Source: Planctomycetales bacterium
GTDB lineage: Bacteria > 4484-113
Assembly: GCA_037445915.1 (NCBI GenBank)
Contig: JBBIJQ010000012.1
Coordinates: 31,818-43,776 of the forward strand
Length of the DNA: 11,959 bases
Direction: 5' to 3'
A model generated the notes under the pieces. The model made no database searches. It had not been told where the DNA came from and worked only from the letters and a program-made list of their open reading frames with translations. The translations under genes were made by a program, and so were the position numbers. Positions within the stretch are counted from its first letter, which is position 1, and each line of letters starts with the position of its first letter. Positions 1,515-10,969 of the stretch are shown here, in pieces.

Positions 1515-3632
1515 ATGAAAGCACTACGCTTAGCTTTGCCCGCCACGATATTGATGCTGGCACTTTCCCTTTCCGCCTACGCCTCTGTGGAGTTCTTTCC
1601 GCTTTCGCATGTAAAAGCAGGGATGAAATGCATTGGCAAGACCGTAATTCGCGGGACAACCATTGAAACCTTCAATGTTGAGATACTGGACATCATTCCA
1701 GATGGCGGGTTTGACGGCTCGGCAATTATTTTAGCCAAGTTCTCAGGGCCAGTGATAGACTCCTCCAACGGCATTGCCGAAGGCTACTCTGGAAGCCCGG
1801 TTTATATCAACGGCAAGCTACTGGGCGCAGTCTCGTCCGCAATCCCCTTCAGCGACACGCATGTGGGCGGCATAACCCCAATAGCAAACATGCTTGCCGC
1901 GCTCCCGAACCGCTTTCGCGGCGATTACTCCAGCAATACCGTCGTCCCAGAGCCGAACGTAAAGCGCAAGCTGAAGTTCACTGAAAACCTGAAAGCCGCC
2001 GAGAAATCAAATGAGCAACAGCCTTTAGAAGGCGGGACGCTTTCGGCGGTTCCGATTAGCGCGCCCATCGTCGTATCAGGCCTCAGCGCAAACAGCATGC
2101 GCATACTGGAGGAGAAGATCGCCAACAGCCCCTTTCTTCACCTTGCGCCAATCGGCGGAGCTGGAGACGGAGTCGGCGGCTTGCGCAAAGGGCTGCTTTA
2201 CAGCCCTGCGGCTGATGGACCGCTTCAGGCAGGCGACGCAGCGGGAGTCTCGTTGATGACCGGCGACATTGACATCAGCGCAATCGGAACGGTAACTTAT
2301 GTTGACGACAACGGGCAGGTGCTTATGTTCGGCCACCCGTTCAATATGACCGGCGAGATTGACCTTCCGCTTCAGAAGGCATACATCGCCTACACTTATA
2401 AGAGCATTGAGCGCGCCTTCAAGGTCGGCTACACTCTCTACCCCGTAGGCGCCGCCAAGCAAGACCGCGCGGCGGCCGTTGGCGGGCTTCTGAACGCGGT
2501 GCCGGATATGGTGCCGATGAAGATCACTATCCGCGATATAGACATGGGCATTACGCGCGAGTTCAACGTGTCCATTGCGCGTGACCCAAGCTGGTTTGAC
2601 AGCCTGGCGATGACAGCGTTCGGCGAAGCTCTCGTGCGGACGGTTAATATGCAGCGCGGCGGAACGGTGCGGATGGAATTCGCGCTGGAAGGCAGCGGGC
2701 TCAAAGAGCCGCTTAAACGCACCAACTATTATTACTCCAACTTATCGCCTACGGACGTTGTCTGGGAAGAGATGCTCCCGCTTGCTTCGCTGCTCGCCAA
2801 CAATATCTACCGCGAAGTGAAGCTTACGAAGCTGTCAGTTTCGGTTGACTTCACCCGCAACCGCGTGAATGCTGCCATTGACGGCGCTGAGCTGCTGCTG
2901 CCCGGCGAGAAGCCGAAGAAACCGCTCTTAGCAGGCGAGCCTGCCCAGGCGGATGCGGCAGGGGATGAGGTGGAATCGCAGCCCGAAGGGGAGGACGGCG
3001 CAGGCAGCTCCACAACACAGCTACAGCAGCAAAACAGAACTGCTCAAGATAGCGCCGTGGCGGAAGCTGCCACCCCTCTCAGCCCAGCTCTGCCCCAGCC
3101 AAGGACAGTGCGCCCAGGTCAATTGCTGCGCGTGGTTGTGCGGCTCCAGCCATACCGTGAAAAGCCCATTGAGCAGATGATTTACTTCACTCTCCCCGCT
3201 GATTTCCCTGAAGGGCCGACTAGCATGGTTGTGCATAGCGGCGGTGGCCTGCTTTCCATATTCAACGAGTTTGGCGGGCGCGGCAGATACTTGCTTGGAA
3301 TGGGTAATTTCGTTAACGTGCCAGTCAACCTGCACGACCTAGACAAGATTATTGAGAAGGCTCTCTCAACTCCGCTCAACAACGATATCGTCGTGAGCAT
3401 CCTCAAACCAGGCGTTGACCCAAGCGCCGGGCAGAACGCGCAGCCGGCGAAAGCCGCCGAAGATCCGGACTGGGAACCCGATTTCCGCGTTAGCTTGCCG
3501 ACCAAGTGGGTAATTTATGAAGGGCAGATGATTCCGATAATCGTCGCCAAGGCGGGAAGCGAGGCTGATAACCAGCCCGCTACCCGCGCGGAGGCGGATG
3601 AAGTAGAAGGCGAAGGGGACGGGGAAGGCTAA
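1515..3632 (+). CDS. Secreted SpoIVB-like peptidase S55 domain protein
   Basis: Signal peptide MKALRLALPATILMLALSLSAYA; S55 serine motif GIAEGYSGSPVYINGKLLGAVS (Ser92); GTVTY...FGHPF motif (His274); GGAG SD at 1503-1506; acidic linker and acidic tail. Confidence 0.85.
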   Translation: MKALRLALPATILMLALSLSAYASVEFFPLSHVKAGMKCIGKTVIRGTTIETFNVEILDIIPDGGFDGSAIILAKFSGPVIDSSNGIAEGYSGSPVYINGKLLGAVSSAIPFSDTHVGGITPIANMLAALPNRFRGDYSSNTVVPEPNVKRKLKFTENLKAAEKSNEQQPLEGGTLSAVPISAPIVVSGLSANSMRILEEKIANSPFLHLAPIGGAGDGVGGLRKGLLYSPAADGPLQAGDAAGVSLMTGDIDISAIGTVTYVDDNGQVLMFGHPFNMTGEIDLPLQKAYIAYTYKSIERAFKVGYTLYPVGAAKQDRAAAVGGLLNAVPDMVPMKITIRDIDMGITREFNVSIARDPSWFDSLAMTAFGEALVRTVNMQRGGTVRMEFALEGSGLKEPLKRTNYYYSNLSPTDVVWEEMLPLASLLANNIYREVKLTKLSVSVDFTRNRVNAAIDGAELLLPGEKPKKPLLAGEPAQADAAGDEVESQPEGEDGAGSSTTQLQQQNRTAQDSAVAEAATPLSPALPQPRTVRPGQLLRVVVRLQPYREKPIEQMIYFTLPADFPEGPTSMVVHSGGGLLSIFNEFGGRGRYLLGMGNFVNVPVNLHDLDKIIEKALSTPLNNDIVVSILKPGVDPSAGQNAQPAKAAEDPDWEPDFRVSLPTKWVIYEGQMIPIIVAKAGSEADNQPATRAEADEVEGEGDGEG

Positions 3633-4488: not shown

Positions 4489-4875
4489 TTATTCCTTAGC
4501 GGCGTCCTGGTAAATACGCCTTGCCATGTCAAAAGTCTCCTCGGCAATTGCCATCGCCGATGCGTCAAAGCCCACCAGCGGGAAATTAAAGACGTAAAGC
4601 ACTGTGGAAGTTTTCGTGTCCACGGCATACGAGCCCATCCATGTTTCACGGTTAAGCTCAAGCAGCATTTCAAACTGGGCCGCTGTATTCGCCTCGTCAA
4701 TGCGGTCAAGCACAAACATCAGGCGCAAGAATGTAGGCTTGCCCTTGTCCTGGAACGTTAGCGCGAGAAAGTAACGGTCATCGTGCTGCACCTGGTAGAT
4801 ATCCATGTTCCCTTCGGTAGTAGCTTTAGTGAAGGTGCAGTTAAGCGAGCCGAGCAGTTCTTCAAATCCGTTCAT
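4489..4875 (-). CDS. Small acidic protein, YbjN / CesT (type III secretion chaperone-like) fold predicted, 128 aa
   Basis: Size, acidity and the segment FEMLLELNRETWMGSYAVD followed by a C-terminal helix fit the family pattern (LLxLN....G.h.hD). ATG 4875 overlaps the upstream TGA (ATGA). ATG 4881 is an alternative start. Confidence 0.6.
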   Translation of the reverse strand: MNGFEELLGSLNCTFTKATTEGNMDIYQVQHDDRYFLALTFQDKGKPTFLRLMFVLDRIDEANTAAQFEMLLELNRETWMGSYAVDTKTSTVLYVFNFPLVGFDASAMAIAEETFDMARRIYQDAAKE

Positions 4876-6626
4876 TGGCAAAATCCTTTGTCCTTAAGGA
4901 ACGACCGCAAGGACATAGTGTTATTACATTCCCGTTCGGTGGCGATGAAGGTAAACTTCTGCAACCCAAGGCGCTCCTTTAGCAGTGACGGCATCCACAC
5001 TACACGCTTCAGCCCGCCTTCAGCAGCAAGGAAGTCGCGGCTGCGAAGGTAATCGTCTGACACGCCCATAACCCCAGGGACCTGCCTGCCTGCGACTTCG
5101 CGGAGCAGGCCGAAAAAAGTGCGCTGGTCGGGGGAATGCCCGTCGTAATCGCAACTGAGAACGACAATGCCTTCCAAGTGTTCGTTGTAATACGCGATGT
5201 TCTGCGCAAAAACCGTAACCGGCGGCGGGGAATCAAGCAGCGATTGCAGGCTAACTTTGCTGATGCCGCCTTCGCTAAGGATGCGGGCAAACTTAGAAAC
5301 CCCGCTGTAGAACACCTTATGCTTGTCAACAAGCTCGCCGCGCTTAATGGGGAAATGCTCCAGGCTGCCAGTGAAAAGAGCGCGCGCGCGGATGCCGTCA
5401 TAGCTGAGCTCGCACTGCGGCGGGTGTAGGACGGAGACAAAGCAAAACCCGTTGCGAGAACACCTCTGGCAAAATGTGCAGACAAACAGCGGAGCGTCAA
5501 AGTCCCCGCGTTTGGCAAGCGCATGGCGGCGCTCTTCCTTGTAGCCTGCTGCGATAGCCTTCAAGTTTTGCAGGCGAAGGCTGTCAAAGATGAGCTTGAC
5601 TGAGACCTGAGTCAGCGCGAACTTCTCCTTGAGCCTGCGATAGATTTCCCAGCCCACCTCTTCCGGCTCGCGCATCTTGCCAATGAGCACCAGCTTAAAA
5701 AACTCGCCCGGCTCCATGCGAACCCATGGGTGGCGAGCAAAGATGCGGTGCAGCTCGTTCTCCAAGTATGCAGTAAGCGTGATGTCCACATCGCTGTCGC
5801 CGAGGTCAATGATTAGCCCAGCCTCGTCTTCCATCTTCCCGCGAACTTCAACCCCATCAATGCCGCCCATCGCGCGCACTACGCAAAAAGACGAGTATCC
5901 ACCGCCGACTTCAAACCTCTCTGTATCCTCAATCGCCGTCAGATTGCCCTCCACACGCTTGATTTTCCGCGCGTTGAACACAGGCTGTAGGCGGTGAATC
6001 TTGGCGAAAAGGTCGTCAAGGTCGCTGATGAGGTTGTAGTTAAACATCGGCCCCAATGGAACGCGGCTGAAAATGGGGATGCTCAGGTGGTGTAGTGAGC
6101 GTAGGAGATTCTGGTCAAATTCATCGGGCGCTTCGTTAACGACAACCGCAGCCATCAGCCGCGAGCGCAGCAGGCTCACGAGCGAAAACAGGTCGCGCTC
6201 TTCCCAGAGGAAGAAGTTGTGCGCGTAACGCAAAACGTTTTGCACGAAGGGGATGACATGCGCAGGCTCTTCTGCCTGCGAAATGAGGAGGCCCGGGCAA
6301 TCGTAGTTCTCAAGCTCAGGTTCAGGCGTTAGGAAGTGGACGAAAGTCGTTGCCGGCGGGTTTTTGCGGAAAAGCTGGAAGAACCGCGCCCAGTCCGTCT
6401 CGCCCCCAAAAAGTGAAGCAAAGTTGCTAATCTCCATAAGCCCCAGGAGAATCAGCGGGTTACGCTGGTAACCGGCCTCTATTTCCTCAGGAGATTTGTT
6501 GAGCAGCACTGTGGTATCAAAGAGCATCCGGTTGACGATGAGCCTTGGCTCGTCTGGCTTCAGCGAAAAGCCCTGGAGCGCTCTTGCCAGCCGTTTGATA
6601 TTGAATGATCTCTGAACCCTTGCCAT
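4872..6626 (-). CDS. Acetyl-CoA synthase (AcsB/CdhC family) homolog, divergent, lacking the Ni-binding Cys-Gly-Cys motif, 584 aa
   Basis: The C-terminal domain follows AcsB domain 3 in order: CTFCQ..N.FC...PPQC..SY, SPDQRTF, GRQVPGVMGV, FLAAEGGLKRVVWMPSLLKERL, IATE, FLKDKG. The middle domain (EVGG, GLIIDL, YLENELH, LKEKF, VSVKLIFD, YKEERR) matches domain 2. Start taken as ATG 6626, 1 nt after the argS stop. Confidence 0.85.
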   Translation of the reverse strand: MARVQRSFNIKRLARALQGFSLKPDEPRLIVNRMLFDTTVLLNKSPEEIEAGYQRNPLILLGLMEISNFASLFGGETDWARFFQLFRKNPPATTFVHFLTPEPELENYDCPGLLISQAEEPAHVIPFVQNVLRYAHNFFLWEERDLFSLVSLLRSRLMAAVVVNEAPDEFDQNLLRSLHHLSIPIFSRVPLGPMFNYNLISDLDDLFAKIHRLQPVFNARKIKRVEGNLTAIEDTERFEVGGGYSSFCVVRAMGGIDGVEVRGKMEDEAGLIIDLGDSDVDITLTAYLENELHRIFARHPWVRMEPGEFFKLVLIGKMREPEEVGWEIYRRLKEKFALTQVSVKLIFDSLRLQNLKAIAAGYKEERRHALAKRGDFDAPLFVCTFCQRCSRNGFCFVSVLHPPQCELSYDGIRARALFTGSLEHFPIKRGELVDKHKVFYSGVSKFARILSEGGISKVSLQSLLDSPPPVTVFAQNIAYYNEHLEGIVVLSCDYDGHSPDQRTFFGLLREVAGRQVPGVMGVSDDYLRSRDFLAAEGGLKRVVWMPSLLKERLGLQKFTFIATERECNNTMSLRSFLKDKGFCQ

Positions 6627-6627
6627 G

Positions 6628-8454
6628 TCACATCTCGTCTGGCAGCTCAATGCCGAGTAAGCCACAGCCTGACGCTAGAACCACGCAAAACACCTTCACT
6701 AAGCACTGGCGGAAGCGCCGCTCGGCCTCTTCAGCCTTGAGCACGGGGCACGCTTGATAGAAATCGGTGAAGGCGCGAGTAAGCTCGTAAAGGTAATTCG
6801 CGAGCAGGTTTGGCGAATGTGATTCCTGCGCAAGCCGGGCGCGATCCGGAAACTCCGCGATGACGCGGCAGAGCATAGTTTCCTGCGCGGCTGGCGAATA
6901 CGCGTCCGGCACATCTTCGCCTGTATAGCCAACCAGCAGCTTGCGCGCTCGCGCATATGCATATTGGATGTATGGCCCGGCGTTGCCGTCAAAGGTAAGC
7001 GCCTGCTCCCAATCAAAGACGATGACCTTGGACGGGTCAACTTTAAGGAATGCGTATTTAATTGCGCCCAGAGCGACTATCCCCGCGACTTTCTCGGTTT
7101 CAGCACTGATGCCGCGCTCCGCAGCAAGCTCACGCGCCTGGGCCTTTGCTTCGGCAATGAATGCGTGGTAGGGGATTACCGTCCCCTCGCGGCTGCTCAT
7201 TTTCCCGCCTGCAAGCTGCACCAGCTCGTAGGAGATATGACGGCACTTCGGCGCGGCTGCGAATCCCCATGCCTGAAGTATTTTGAAAACCTGTTTGAAA
7301 TAAAGAACTTGCTCGCTGCCGACAACGTAAAGCGATCGGTCCACAGCATATTCGCGGAACTTCACCTGCGCCAGCGCAAGCTCTTTGGTCTGGTAAAGCG
7401 TAGTGCCGTCGCTGCGGCGGATGACCATTTTCCCCAGCTCCGGCGCGCCAAACCGCGCGAAATCAACGACGGCGGTTCCGACATACTCTCCTTCTGCCGC
7501 AACTTCTGCAACACCTTTAACGAGAAGCTCTTCAACAATTGTTCCTGTAAGCCCTTCAGCCTCGCTCTCAAAGAACTCCACGTCAAAGCAAACACCGAGT
7601 TCCCCATAAACGCGCGCGAATTCCGCCAAGTCTTCGCCTCGCGTATTGCGCCATAGCGTATATGAATCACTTTCCGGGTTGTCCAGGTCTCGTAGGATTT
7701 GGGGAATTCCAGCTTCCGCCTGCATTTTGATCTCAGCTAGGCGGGGCATATCACTATCCGCCGTGAGCAGCCGTTCCACCCGCGCATACACGCTCGCGAT
7801 TTTTGCGCAACCCATCAGCCCTTCGGCCTCTGCGAGAAGCCCCGTGTGCTGCCGCCCCCAGAGCGACTTAGCGACATGTATGCCGTGGTCGCCGTAGTAA
7901 TTGGCGCGGAGCACCTTGAATCCAGCGAACTCGTAGAGGTTCGCGATGGCGTTGCCAAGCAACACGTTGCGCAAGTGGCCGACGTGAAACTCCTTGTGCG
8001 TGTTTGGCTGTGAGAACTCCACCATCACGCGCTCGCCCTTAGCCTCGCCACGCCCGAATCCCGCGCCCGCCTTTTTCACTTCGGCAAGCAGCCCGGCGCA
8101 AGCCTGCTGTGTGTTCAGGTAGAAGTTCAGGTAACCGCCTTCAGCCTCTACGCGCCCTGTGGAGGGCGGCAGCTTCGCAGCCACCTCTCCTGCCAGTTTC
8201 ATCGCTATTTCGCCTGCCAGCGCGCGGCTGCGTTCCTGAAGCGCTTTCTTGGCCGCCTTCTTTCCCAATTCGCCCTCTAGGCGTATTTGCTCGCCTGCCA
8301 ACAGCGCGGCGGCAAGCTCCTGTGGCAGAGTTGACGCATATCCCCATTCACGCGGAGGGGCGATGCGGCGCAACGCAACCGGCAAGCCGGGATAGCCCAG
8401 CTTTGCGGAAGCATCCGCAATTCCTGAGATGAGGCTTTCTTCAAGCGGCCGCAA
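6628..8454 (-). CDS. argS: Arginine--tRNA ligase
   Basis: VMVEFSQPNTHKEFHVGHLRN (HIGH motif), RRSDGTTLYQTKELA, YVVGSEQ, GKMSSREG (KMSKS motif), GPYIQYAYAR, FYQACPVL and C-terminal LLGIELPDEM. The TTG start is tentative. Confidence 0.97.
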   Translation of the reverse strand: MRPLEESLISGIADASAKLGYPGLPVALRRIAPPREWGYASTLPQELAAALLAGEQIRLEGELGKKAAKKALQERSRALAGEIAMKLAGEVAAKLPPSTGRVEAEGGYLNFYLNTQQACAGLLAEVKKAGAGFGRGEAKGERVMVEFSQPNTHKEFHVGHLRNVLLGNAIANLYEFAGFKVLRANYYGDHGIHVAKSLWGRQHTGLLAEAEGLMGCAKIASVYARVERLLTADSDMPRLAEIKMQAEAGIPQILRDLDNPESDSYTLWRNTRGEDLAEFARVYGELGVCFDVEFFESEAEGLTGTIVEELLVKGVAEVAAEGEYVGTAVVDFARFGAPELGKMVIRRSDGTTLYQTKELALAQVKFREYAVDRSLYVVGSEQVLYFKQVFKILQAWGFAAAPKCRHISYELVQLAGGKMSSREGTVIPYHAFIAEAKAQARELAAERGISAETEKVAGIVALGAIKYAFLKVDPSKVIVFDWEQALTFDGNAGPYIQYAYARARKLLVGYTGEDVPDAYSPAAQETMLCRVIAEFPDRARLAQESHSPNLLANYLYELTRAFTDFYQACPVLKAEEAERRFRQCLVKVFCVVLASGCGLLGIELPDEM

Positions 8455-8542
8455 TGCCTAATGATTATTGACGATAACTCCTGTTTTCACAAGGAAATCA
8501 GGCCTAGAGCCTATGAGTAAGTGGGGAATCTAGCCTCGTTTG

Positions 8543-8551
8543 TGCTAGAAT
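8543..8551 (+). promoter_or_regulatory. Putative extended -10 promoter for the primase/helicase-like gene
   Basis: TG-C-TAGAAT (8543-8551) in the 113-bp divergent intergenic region, followed by the SD-like AAGGGG at 8563-8568. No clear -35 element. Confidence 0.55.
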
Positions 8552-8567: not shown

Positions 8568-10850
8568 GTGGCATTAACCTCGGTGAAACCAACTAAATAC
8601 TCACAGGTTTCTATTCAGGCCCTCTTGAAGAAGCTGAACCCACGCCAGGTGTACAGCGTTTTCGGAGTGGACTCCAGCCGGGTGCAGGAAGCGGAAGACG
8701 CATTTCGCATTGACTGCCCCTTCCATCCTACCGCGTCAAACTACTCGCTGGTTACGGAGAAGGACAATACCGCGACCTACTGCCTAGACCTGGGATGCCG
8801 CGCATCACGCCTGAACGAGGGCGGCGGCAACCTCATTGAGTTCTATGCAATGGCGAAGAACCTTCCCTACGACACGGCGCTGGATGAATGGGCGGAACGG
8901 CTCAACATGGCTATGGAATCGCGGGGCGAGGAGGAGCGCGAACATGAGCGCGACATTTCCTACTTCAAGTATGTTGAGATTGGACGTTTCACGCAGGTGG
9001 AAGGCGAAGAGGAAACCTCGCTATCCTTAAAGCCGGCTCACCTGGTCATCGCAGGCGAGGAAGCCATCGGGCGCGGTATTATCATTCCCTTGGCCCAGCT
9101 TCCAGCCGCCTCCATCCAGTACAATTCCGACTTCTACCGCTCGCAGTTCCTTTACGAGCTGACTGACAAGGAAGCCATTGAAGAGGAACACCGCCGTGGC
9201 AGCCTCTATATGCTCGGGAATTACTTCATTATCTTTGAAGCAAAAACGAGCGCTGAGATTGTCCATGCCATCAACCAGGCGATTGAACTCGTGGAACGGC
9301 TGAACAAGGATTTTGAGATACCCTTTGAAGCCATCAACATCTACTACTCTCACAAGTATATAGAAGTTGAGGTTGATTACACAGTCTTCGGCATAATCCC
9401 GCGCAACGACCTAGACCGCGTCTTTGCTGAGATGACCCGCATCCTCATCGCCCACGACTCGCAGGCAGGAGAGCCGTCAACCACTGTCGGCTTCAGCCAG
9501 GTGAAGATTGACGCGTACGCTTATAACTACATGACTGCTGTTCCCGGCACGCGCATCTCCGTCCCCGGCAAAGAGCTATACAAGATACGGCTGCCCTACA
9601 ACCTTTTTAAGAAAACCTCCTACCAGCGCTTGCACGAGCTTTCCCGCCGCAAGCCTGAACTGGGTGAGCGAGGGCTGGCCGAGCGCATATCTCCTGCTGG
9701 CAGGACGCTTTACGAACGGGCGGTGCGCGCGATTGAGGGCGAAGGCAAAGAGGACGAGCACGAGACCATCGCCTCAATGTTCTACCGCGAGTCCGAAACG
9801 AAAACCCTCCCTGCTACCGCTGACCAGCTTGCCAAGACGCTGTTAAAGCGCCTGTTCTCGGAAAACCGACTGATTCTGCGCACGCCCAGCGACCACCTCA
9901 ATCGCGCGCTAGGCGGCGGGTTCTATCCCGGCAATCTATATATGCTAGCAGGCTTTCCCGGCAGCGGGACAACGACCTTCAGCATCTGGCTTCTCTGCAA
10001 GATTGCAGAAGAGCACAAGATTCCCTGCGTCTTCGTGTCGCTGCAAGTGGGCATTGAAGAGGTGTTCAAGCGCGCGCTGGCCATGCTCGGCAACATTGAC
10101 CTTGCGGAGATTTCACAGAAACGGCTGCGCCCCAGCGAGCTGTACTCCGACAGCTCATTCCACAAGCGCGCTTTCGCCGCTTACGAAAAGTTCCAGAAAA
10201 TAACCGAGCATGTCTCCATTATTGAGGGAACTAAGATCGCCAGCATTGAACACCTGCGCAAACTAGCGCTTAAGCTCAAGCAGCAAACGGTGGAGCAAAA
10301 CGGGATATCCAACGTGTTCATTGTCATCGACTCGCTGCAGCTGTTTCTGGCGCATATGAAGGCCGCGAAGGTAACCGATGAGACCTACGACCTAGATATG
10401 CTCACGGCTGTCCTCAAGTCGCTTGCCCGCGAGATGGACATCACCATTTACGCAACCGCTGAGTACTACACCGAGCACAACTCGTTCTACGCCGGCGTTG
10501 ACCCGTCCAATGTTGACTTGAAGGAACTTTACCAAAGCACCCAGTTCGCGGATGCGGTTGCCATCTTGAGCAACCAGGAAACGCGGCTGCACAACCTAAA
10601 GGACTTTTACCGCAGCGCGCTTGCGGGCGGTTACGAAGAAGAGAAGACCGACCGCATCACGAGCAGGCTGGCAGCCGTAGAAGATGCCCTGCGCTCCAGC
10701 GCGGATATGAAATTGCGGAATAGCTGCTTCACCGTCATTGATATCATCAAGAACCGAGGTGGGCTGACTAGCAAGGTGCTCTTTATCTACAACCGCGCAA
10801 ATGCCAACTTTGAGCCGGTGGAATACTGCGACACTGTGAACGGCACCTAG
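8568..10850 (+). CDS. Fusion protein: CHC2-type primase zinc finger + degenerate AEP primase-like domain + degenerate DnaB-like (SF4) helicase domain
   Basis: N-terminal CPFH-x18-C-x4-C...GGNLIEF..AKNLPYDTAL; central INIYYS...VFGIIP..DL...KID....PGT....LYKIRL...SY..LHELS pattern of phage-type AEPs; C-terminal LNRALGGGFYPGNLYMLAGFPGSGTTT, VIDSLQL, LKSLAREMDI, FADAV, IIKNRGG. GTG 8583 is an alternative start. Confidence 0.8.
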   Translation: MALTSVKPTKYSQVSIQALLKKLNPRQVYSVFGVDSSRVQEAEDAFRIDCPFHPTASNYSLVTEKDNTATYCLDLGCRASRLNEGGGNLIEFYAMAKNLPYDTALDEWAERLNMAMESRGEEEREHERDISYFKYVEIGRFTQVEGEEETSLSLKPAHLVIAGEEAIGRGIIIPLAQLPAASIQYNSDFYRSQFLYELTDKEAIEEEHRRGSLYMLGNYFIIFEAKTSAEIVHAINQAIELVERLNKDFEIPFEAINIYYSHKYIEVEVDYTVFGIIPRNDLDRVFAEMTRILIAHDSQAGEPSTTVGFSQVKIDAYAYNYMTAVPGTRISVPGKELYKIRLPYNLFKKTSYQRLHELSRRKPELGERGLAERISPAGRTLYERAVRAIEGEGKEDEHETIASMFYRESETKTLPATADQLAKTLLKRLFSENRLILRTPSDHLNRALGGGFYPGNLYMLAGFPGSGTTTFSIWLLCKIAEEHKIPCVFVSLQVGIEEVFKRALAMLGNIDLAEISQKRLRPSELYSDSSFHKRAFAAYEKFQKITEHVSIIEGTKIASIEHLRKLALKLKQQTVEQNGISNVFIVIDSLQLFLAHMKAAKVTDETYDLDMLTAVLKSLAREMDITIYATAEYYTEHNSFYAGVDPSNVDLKELYQSTQFADAVAILSNQETRLHNLKDFYRSALAGGYEEEKTDRITSRLAAVEDALRSSADMKLRNSCFTVIDIIKNRGGLTSKVLFIYNRANANFEPVEYCDTVNGT

Positions 10851-10856
10851 CTTTGA

Positions 10857-10885
10857 TTGACATCTGCCCTGCGGCTGTCTAAGAT
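10857..10885 (+). promoter_or_regulatory. Sigma70-type promoter of tRNA-Arg
   Basis: TTGACA (10857-10862), 17-bp spacer, TAAGAT (10880-10885), ending 10 nt before the tRNA. Confidence 0.85.
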
Positions 10886-10895
10886 ACTCGTTCGC

Positions 10896-10969
10896 GCGCC
10901 CGTAGCTCAGGGGATTAGAGCGTCTGTCTACGGAACAGAAGGCCGTAGGTTCAAATCCTACCGGGCGTA
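10896..10969 (+). tRNA. tRNA-Arg (anticodon ACG), 3' CCA not encoded
   Basis: Cloverleaf: acceptor GCGCCCG/CGGGCGT, D arm GCTC/GAGC, anticodon arm TCTGT-CTACGGA-ACAGA (ACG 10930-10932), T arm GTAGG-TTCAAAT-CCTAC, discriminator A10969. Confidence 0.97.

Follow-up and report, generated by a model that had tools for sequence, protein, structure and literature searches.

Bacterial archaeo-eukaryotic primases (AEPs) are described, in the portions of PMC5862659 drawn on here, as fusions to PriCT-1 or Zn-binding domains and to DnaB, RepA, MCM or DUF3987 ATPases, and as being encoded nearly exclusively in mobile elements; changing the two motif-I aspartates of one AEP, PolpTN2, abolished both its polymerase and its primase activity (PMC5862659). 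Here we analyzed a gene of related build in an 11,959-nt stretch of DNA from a Planctomycetales bacterium (GenBank assembly GCA_037445915.1, contig JBBIJQ010000012.1, positions 31,818 to 43,776; hereafter the window). The host genome (1.79 Mb, 120 contigs, 90% complete) belongs to GTDB phylum 4484-113, for which the part of PMC11382960 used here gives 12 genomes of 1.54-4.11 Mb. The gene and its protein, a pseudo-primase-helicase that we label X and number by its 760-aa frame, join a DnaG-type (CHC2) Zn ribbon, a predicted AEP-fold domain and a DnaB-like domain of helicase superfamily 4 (SF4). The catalytic residues of both enzyme domains are substituted, and X is nonetheless a single-copy, syntenic chromosomal gene throughout nearly all sampled genomes of the phylum.

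Results

The C-terminal module of X is recognized as DnaB-like by Pfam DnaB_C (PF03796; E 1.9e-20, 73.8 bits vs. a cut-off of 27), by the PHROG "DnaB-like replicative helicase" (E 2.7e-21) and by Foldseek matches to DnaB structures (E 1.1e-15). The match to TIGR00665, the equivalog of replicative DnaB, reached 74.8 bits vs. a cut-off of 385.25 and covered profile positions 178-432 only, and alignment with the DnaB encoded by the same genome extends over 222 aa at 25% identity. Residue alignments to Aquifex DnaB and to this canonical DnaB, on which the motif calls are based, revealed that the Walker A segment G(M/V)GKT of DnaB reads GSGTT in X, that H1a has changed from S(L/M)EM to SLQV and that H3 has changed from SQLSR to AEYYT, with Glu replacing Gln; Walker B (IDSLQL), the LKxLARE block, TQFAD and KNRGG have been retained. 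Judging from its position before the GG..PG..Walker A segment, the helix at residues 418-429 is likely the equivalent of the DnaB linker helix. In a census of 52 sequences (the query, 47 database homologues and 4 further representatives), the Walker-A Lys was found in 0/52 (Thr in 43), while Gln occupied the catalytic Glu position and Glu the H3 Gln position in 51/52 each. Retained were the Walker-B Asp (D588), the Walker-A Ser/Thr and K728, all in 52/52, and the arginine finger R730 in 50/52; Q493 is present in 51/52 and E497 in 52/52. Loss of the Walker-A Lys normally weakens nucleotide binding as well as hydrolysis, and its absence from the aligned sequences argues against tight canonical ATP binding by X.

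The middle of X (residues ~130-430) has no Pfam match, and a Foldseek search with the model of the whole protein returned DnaB chains only; the domain emerged only when it was folded separately, from a 19-row alignment built from the loci, giving a model with a predicted local distance difference test score (pLDDT) of 88.0 and a predicted template modelling score (pTM) of 0.86. VIA-align vs. representative structures matched this model to archaeal PriS 1zt2 (Z 11.9, root-mean-square deviation 3.7, 194 aligned) and to PriS 1v33 (Z 11.9). The 19 chains at Z>=5 were AEP-type entries and the next chain scored 4.9; they comprise PriS, Prim-PolC, LigD polymerase domains, CAPP, PrimPol, RepB', poxvirus D5/E5, African swine fever virus PrimPol, chains of the Pol-alpha-primase complex and of the herpes helicase-primase complex, and HP0184, with our reading of the complex chains as AEP subunits and of HP0184 as AEP-like being an interpretation of the structure entry titles. 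Foldseek with the separate domain ranked a LigD polymerase (E 7.6e-4) ahead of Prim-PolC, RepB' and D5/E5, and PHROGs "primase" families matched it weakly (E 4e-5 and 3e-4). By the predicted structure, the middle domain of X has an AEP fold.

None of the AEP catalytic motifs is intact in this domain. When 18 of the non-family relatives described below were aligned with the family profile, their motif I (hDhD) fell on I222/E224 of X, motif II (SGxGxH) on S261...E266 with E266 at the His position, the motif-III Asp on K313 and the Arg of RhPGS on A324. Across the census, the first motif-I Asp is found in 0/52 sequences and the second in 2/52, position 224 being highly variable; the motif-II His is found in 0/52 (Glu in 42) and the motif-III Asp in 32/52, mainly in deeper branches, with K at position 313 in X and K, N or S in close members of the type found in the window's own GTDB family (f1). 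D270 is invariant in the family and is also Asp in several active relatives. Conservation elsewhere on the domain is pronounced: K339, Y344, K348, K349 and Y352 are invariant, R341 is near-invariant, and the helix S228-E243 (SAEIVHAINQAIELVE) is almost invariant. PriCT-1 (PF08708) gave no match in X at E<=0.01, residues 376-429 being helical. As far as these alignments show, X is without access to the canonical chemistry of either enzyme.

At the N-terminus, the Zn ribbon matched PF01807 weakly (19.4 bits, below the cut-off of 24.9) and TIGR01391 at E 9.8e-5, with orthologs scoring up to 34.3 bits on TIGR01391 positions 4-101. All four ligands are present in X in CxxH/C ... CxxxxC spacing, at the residues given in the initial annotation of this DNA. 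Where family members cover the region, Cys is conserved at its three positions in 42/43, 41/42 and 41/42 of them, and the residue at position 53 alternates between His (21 members) and Cys (20). Pfam and NCBIfam gave no TOPRIM match in X; an AEP fold follows the finger instead. The Zn-ribbon region is absent from genus g7 (2 genomes, G010 and G011; loci L020 and L021), where 670-684-aa open reading frames (ORFs) match X from residue ~132, and from ~9 metagenomic members. The initial annotation had proposed an intact frame with Zn-finger, AEP-like and SF4/DnaB-like modules, which the Pfam, fold and structure searches confirmed, and substituted catalytic residues in both enzyme domains, on which the DnaB and active-AEP alignments agree. 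It had also regarded a CHC2 finger ahead of an AEP as an exception to the rule; the arrangement is real in X, but it occurs in the active proteins P0054 and P0057 as well.

These two proteins came from a search of 1.84 billion representative proteins with the family profile, in which the only clusters at E<1e-30 were 6 that represent the family itself and 114 proteins, 108 of them non-family, matched at E<=1e-3. P0054 (429 aa) and P0057 (855 aa) have N-terminal finger-plus-AEP sequence in common with X throughout, including the blocks ...CP.HG...S(L)....C.n.gC....GG..L...YA... and F.(Y/F).E(V/I)...., and retain the DxD, SGxGxH and D...R.PNS motifs; P0057 scores 29.7 bits on PF01807, above the cut-off, and has matches among the primases annotated in Bacillus and Staphylococcus phages. 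A Pfam scan of 20 of the 108 non-family matches found PriCT_1 above the gathering score in 9 and below it in 2 more, DnaB_C in 3 (P0072, P0087 and P0117), single relatives with D5_N/DUF5906, MCM, AAA_25 or Zn_ribbon_DnaG plus DUF3987, and no Pfam match in 6. Viral proteins make up 75-100% of each of the ten nearest ESM-Atlas clusters shown, which carry DnaB_C, PriCT_1 or RepB_primase. Given these active relatives and the fusions reported in the consulted parts of PMC5862659, the combinations of CHC2 finger with AEP and of AEP with DnaB_C both pre-exist in active mobile forms, and X is best read as a mobile-type protein of this kind that was captured before the radiation of the phylum, possibly at the tRNA-Arg site, and subsequently inactivated. 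The nearest protein outside the family is P0053 (372 aa; E 3.9e-25), the remaining non-family matches being more distant. P0053 is also without AEP motifs I and II (IQFKG at the DxD position, no SGxGxH), shows neither a helicase domain nor an evident Cys motif of a Zn ribbon, and may be a second, independently inactivated relative.

The N-terminal 430 residues of X were found as one copy in 23/24 species genomes of the same GTDB phylum, including 13/13 of high quality; the sole miss was a 62%-complete genome of the same genus (G007). In G007 the DnaB match is also in pieces, with an in-frame TGA (G007:C11:211829-213125), which may reflect an assembly or frameshift problem. Identity to X declines with taxonomic distance, being 54-71% within the family, 36-42% within the order, and 38-40% and 31% for the rest of the class. 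Nearly all of the 23 genomes (1 split, 3 shorter) and the 47 database homologues have intact frames of ~750 aa; the split copy, in G017 (G017:C194), consists of 187-aa and 597-aa frames. A pattern scan of 185,579 species genomes yielded 20 X loci, whose records are named "Planctomycetales bacterium" (including 4484_113 and HK-STAS-UBP7_A-1), "Planctomycetia bacterium" or "bacterium" (in some cases with an isolate name that contains UBP7). To judge from these searches, the family is essentially absent outside the phylum.

The position of X in the chromosome is conserved on its upstream side, where argS is directly adjacent and divergent in 9/20 loci and lies within 6 kb in 13/20. An ACS-like gene follows beyond argS in 10/20, this synteny persisting down to 38% identity; the window's own copy, the Ni-less ACS of the initial annotation, is at 4872-6665(-), and the gene accompanies argS and X in these loci down to 33% identity. 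Downstream, tRNA-Arg(ACG) lies within ~100 nt in 5/20 loci and at ~1.1 kb in 2 more, followed by genes that differ between lineages (LPG-synthase-like, TetR, ArsP, RDD, DUF4349 and a TPR protein). The related loci contain no integrase or phage genes, their neighbours being housekeeping or variable, and no conserved effector or partner gene downstream of X. Nonsynonymous to synonymous rate ratios (dN/dS; Nei-Gojobori), computed for the four pairs with dS<0.6 as more distant pairs are saturated, were 0.019, 0.115, 0.131 and 0.225 for the whole gene and ranged from 0.016 to 0.27 for the three domains taken singly; all three modules are under purifying selection. In the same loci, five close relatives showed 70-72% identity in X vs. 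62-65% in ArgS, and two distant relatives 38-39% vs. 42-44%, X diverging about as slowly as ArgRS.

The genomes that carry X also encode ordinary replication proteins. Canonical DnaB of the host genome (464 bits on TIGR00665) is located on another contig than X, and canonical DnaG and DnaB were found in 24/24 phylum genomes, 22 of them above curated cut-offs; neither the family profile nor PF01896 detected a second AEP-like gene in the host genome. A DciA-like gene is present in 8/9 f1 genomes, with weak matches in 7/10 genomes of family f2 and none, with either query, in the 5 genomes of families f3 and f4. A DnaC/DnaI-type loader was not found: the IstB_IS21 matches are partial and lie in ~450-500-aa frames that we read as DnaA-like, apart from two of the IS21 type that are nearly full-length. 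A role of X as replacement for a helicase loader is weakened by the DciA-like genes, at least in the window's own family. The PriA equivalog TIGR00595 stayed below its cut-off in 24/24 genomes, while the PriA 3'-DNA-binding domain was above cut-off in 12/24, including 9/9 in f1, so PriA appears, by its sequence, to be unusually divergent in this phylum. One 700-aa ORF of the host genome (G000:C7:51029-53131; L027:2029-4131, minus strand) matches the 3'-DNA-binding domain with 41.4 bits and the equivalog partially with 50 bits, and with such an ORF present we rejected the idea that X replaces a missing PriA. Canonical RadA/Sms, with TIGR00416 above its cut-off, was found only in the 4/4 f3 genomes; the best TIGR00416 matches of the 20 others, a complete 4.1-Mb genome among them, were DnaB- or Lon-like proteins. 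RadA coexists with X in f3, and X would be unable to hydrolyze ATP, both of which speak against a replacement of RadA by X.

The frame of X, 8568-10850(+), is uninterrupted over 760 codons, the longest ORF opening at GTG 8568. In an alignment of the upstream regions of 6 close relatives, the start context GGTGAAACC is kept in 6/6 and the sequences diverge 5' of GTG 8583; because of this shared context and the divergence before it, GTG 8583 is most likely the true start. Database homologues open with V/MKPTKYS. The open frame of the initial annotation therefore stands, with its start moved. A promoter of its own, also claimed there, is upheld in part: within the candidate extended -10 element (Table 1), T-TGCTA-AAT is invariant in 6/6 aligned intergenic regions, in the form TGCTA(G/A)AAT, but a strict two-hexamer sigma-70 scan called no plus-strand promoter upstream of X. 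The absence of integrase and phage genes beside X was verified by a Pfam/NCBIfam scan of the window proteins. The X sequence is present in four DNA sequencing runs of one study (0.78-0.93 of sampled words), a small share of its words occurs in one further run from a second study, and no RNA run with X was among the sequencing runs listed.

Table 1. Coordinates of X, its modules and adjacent features in the window
Feature	Position	Strand	Remarks
argS	6628..8454	-	divergent neighbour; TIGR00456, 346 bits
Candidate extended -10 promoter element TGCTAGAAT	8543..8551	+	31 nt upstream of GTG 8583
X coding sequence (most likely start)	8583..10850	+	conserved GTG start; 755 aa
DnaG-type (CHC2) Zn ribbon, residues 42-118	8691..8921	+	ligands C50, H53, C72, C77
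Predicted AEP-fold (primase-polymerase palm) domain, residues 127-395	8946..9752	+	catalytic motifs gone
Probable linker helix, residues 418-429	9819..9854	+	L425, R428, F430 invariant
DnaB_C (SF4 RecA-like) domain, residues 443-749	9894..10814	+	degenerate ATP site
Degenerate Walker A, G462-F-P-G-S-G-T468-T-T470	9951..9977	+	Thr replaces Lys
tRNA-Arg(ACG)	10896..10969	+	directly downstream of X

The other genes of the window are ordinary chromosomal ones, coding for a prepilin-type protein, an S55-like peptidase, a C-N hydrolase and an ACS-beta-like protein, together with ackA. At 1515-3632(+) lies a 705-aa protein, conserved in close relatives, with only a short SpoIVB/S55 peptidase match near its N-terminus (residues 31-118), the remainder having no assignment. 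A promoter-like site at 8464-8492(-), TTGTGA-17-AATAAT, lies immediately 5' of the TTG codon (8454) at which argS starts, so that there is room for almost no leader, and is kept in relatives; another, TTGACA-17-TAAGAT at 10857-10885(+), stands ahead of tRNA-Arg.

Discussion

Building on the observed architecture, loss of catalytic residues, distribution, synteny, selection and ancestry of X, we consider it probable, at moderate confidence, that X is a vertically inherited, phylum-specific pseudoenzyme that serves as a hydrolysis-independent DNA-binding scaffold or organizer in replication or repair. The domesticated pseudoenzyme envisaged by the initial annotation is supported by the phylum-wide single copy, the synteny, the purifying selection and the shared substitutions; orthologs do not restore the canonical residues, and of the proteins that were to be sought elsewhere in the genome, dnaB and dnaG were located and an active AEP paralog was not found. 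We postulate that the ancestor was a mobile-element or phage-type fusion in the order CHC2 Zn ribbon, AEP primase, DnaB-like SF4 helicase, and that substitutions fixed in the phylum ancestor removed the metal and nucleotide ligands of the AEP as well as the Walker-A Lys and catalytic Glu of the helicase; because these residues were lost, X would neither prime nor unwind. The Zn ribbon and the basic surface of the AEP palm (K339, R341, K348, K349) most likely still hold single-stranded DNA (ssDNA) or a primer-template. The DnaB-like domain most likely oligomerizes in the manner of DnaB, via the conserved linker helix, since X has kept this helix as well as the Walker-B Asp, Walker-A Ser/Thr and trans-acting Lys/Arg finger. 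Retention of the same Asp, Ser/Thr and finger, together with the near-invariant Gln, suggests that the inter-subunit site still matters; we surmise that it may bind a ligand without hydrolyzing it or face an active DnaB subunit. X would act beside normal DnaB, DnaG and PriA-like proteins, and beside DciA-like proteins where these are found.

Several points weigh against the scaffold reading: 1) the DNA binding, the oligomerization and the cellular role of X are parts of the proposal that we infer; 2) the retained Arg finger is unexplained by a homo-oligomer with an empty site, because loss of the Walker-A Lys would be expected to impair nucleotide binding; 3) the Zn ribbon is dispensable in at least one lineage and hence not universally required, as genus g7 lacks the region; 4) the model of the whole protein has a pTM of only 0.48, too low to fix the domain arrangement; 5) the motif-III Asp in many members, the Glu that replaces the motif-II His and the invariant D270 could form a remodelled acidic AEP site, unlikely in the window's own protein because of its K313. 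Enlarging on the fifth point, X could still be an enzyme, with E266, D270 and D313 binding metal or with the Lys-less P-loop binding another phosphorylated ligand. The degree to which these acidic positions, Q493, E497 and the helix S228-E243 are conserved would fit such an enzyme; however, K, N or S takes the place of D313 in the window protein and its close f1-type relatives, position 224 is highly variable, D270 is not new to the family, and PolpTN2 was inactive once its motif-I Asp residues were mutated (in the parts of PMC5862659 used here), and we therefore regard a remodelled enzyme as improbable. That X is a decaying remnant of an integrated element, or an assembly error, might be suspected from its mobile-element type ancestry and from the adjoining tRNA-Arg, a classical integration site, but this explanation is refuted by conservation, with frames intact in nearly all genomes and homologues, dN/dS of 0.02-0.27, substitutions common to all members and the same sequence in four DNA runs, and its probability is close to nil.

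X could instead be an anti-phage decoy or sensor, one that joins incoming phage primase-helicases in mixed oligomers and so poisons or detects them. The active proteins nearest to it are indeed primase-helicases of phages and mobile elements, and dead centres with preserved interaction surfaces would suit a dominant-negative subunit. Defence genes are, however, typically patchy and island-borne, whereas X is universal, single-copy and syntenic across the phylum; searches of PADLOC-DB 2.0 with whole X and with the AEP domain returned no family at E<=1, a conserved downstream effector or partner gene was not found, and selection is slow and uniformly purifying without arms-race divergence, making a decoy highly improbable. 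The main specific alternative is a DnaB-directed regulator or loader, in which the dead DnaB-like domain of X would hetero-oligomerize with DnaB, by docking on its ring or inserting into it, and donate its Arg finger to an ATP site of DnaB while the Zn ribbon and the dead palm target ssDNA or a primer terminus. This would account for K728 and R730 being kept though the protein's own P-loop Lys is gone, and it agrees with the invariant residues of the linker helix, with the resemblance to the genome's own DnaB and with the failure to find a DnaC/DnaI-type loader or, in f3 and f4 with either query, DciA; against it stand the DciA-like genes of f1 and, weakly, f2, and the DnaB N-terminal domain that X lacks. 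On balance we hold it to be rather unlikely. A more far-reaching reading, which we likewise rate as rather unlikely, makes X a phylum-specific organizer of the replisome or of repair: the Glu-to-Gln change and the Arg finger would lock the inter-subunit site of a DnaB-like X assembly, which would dock on or mix with replicative DnaB, with the dead palm and Zn ribbon recognizing a primer terminus or ssDNA. If this is true, a phage primase-helicase was taken over in its entirety as a factor that handles the helicase, and X would be an unusually clear instance of two fused enzymes being domesticated for their binding surfaces alone.

Dead enzymes retained as structural subunits are familiar from eukaryotic and viral replisomes, and X would add a bacterial case. 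It amounts to a natural experiment in which a primase-helicase scaffold persists without the chemistry, it indicates that a lineage represented only by metagenomes has a replication or repair component yet to be characterized, and it is a clean marker gene for the phylum. Our full-text literature search turned up no account of an AEP-DnaB family that is both chromosomal and inactivated, a search that did not extend to the supplementary tables of PMC5862659, which might list such proteins. Bacterial AEP primase-helicases are encoded nearly exclusively in mobile elements (PMC5862659), and X has become part of the vertically inherited core of an entire candidate phylum. X is a new, narrowly distributed variant of known primase-helicase fusions: chromosomal, phylum-universal and dead at both centres.

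Among known systems, the AEP primase-helicases of PrimPol-PV1 type belong to the same AEP subfamily as X (profile E 1e-13 to 1e-4), with the same module order, the shared blocks h(E/I)VDxRVFG and LYKIxL and, in some relatives, a DnaB_C domain (P0072, P0087, P0117) or a CHC2 finger (P0057) as in X. Their DxD, SGxGxH and D motifs are intact, as is a GKS/T P-loop; X has lost all of these. They reside nearly exclusively in mobile elements (as far as the consulted parts of PMC5862659 go), in contrast to X, a syntenic chromosomal core gene without detectable PriCT-1. With DnaB (PDB 4nmn, 6qel, 2r6a) X shares the RecA-like C-terminal fold, the linker helix, Walker B and the LKxLARE, TQFAD and KNRxG Arg-finger blocks; it differs in having no DnaB N-terminal domain, in the replaced Walker-A Lys, catalytic Glu and H3 Gln, in the ssDNA-loop segment, where AEYYT takes the place of SQLSR, and in a ~50-residue helical insertion before KNRxG. 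RadA/Sms combines a Zn finger with a DnaB-type RecA domain carrying KNRFG and an inactive Lon-like domain; like X, it has an N-terminal Zn finger, a KNRxG RecA domain and one pseudoenzyme domain, whereas its Walker A is functional, it has no AEP domain, and X matches TIGR00416 only weakly. Metazoan Twinkle, a T7 gp4-like primase-helicase with an inactive TOPRIM-type primase half and an active helicase, is likewise a fusion kept by a cellular lineage with its dead primase as a structural or DNA-binding part; its primase is of the TOPRIM and not the AEP type, and its helicase is active, whereas both halves of X are dead.

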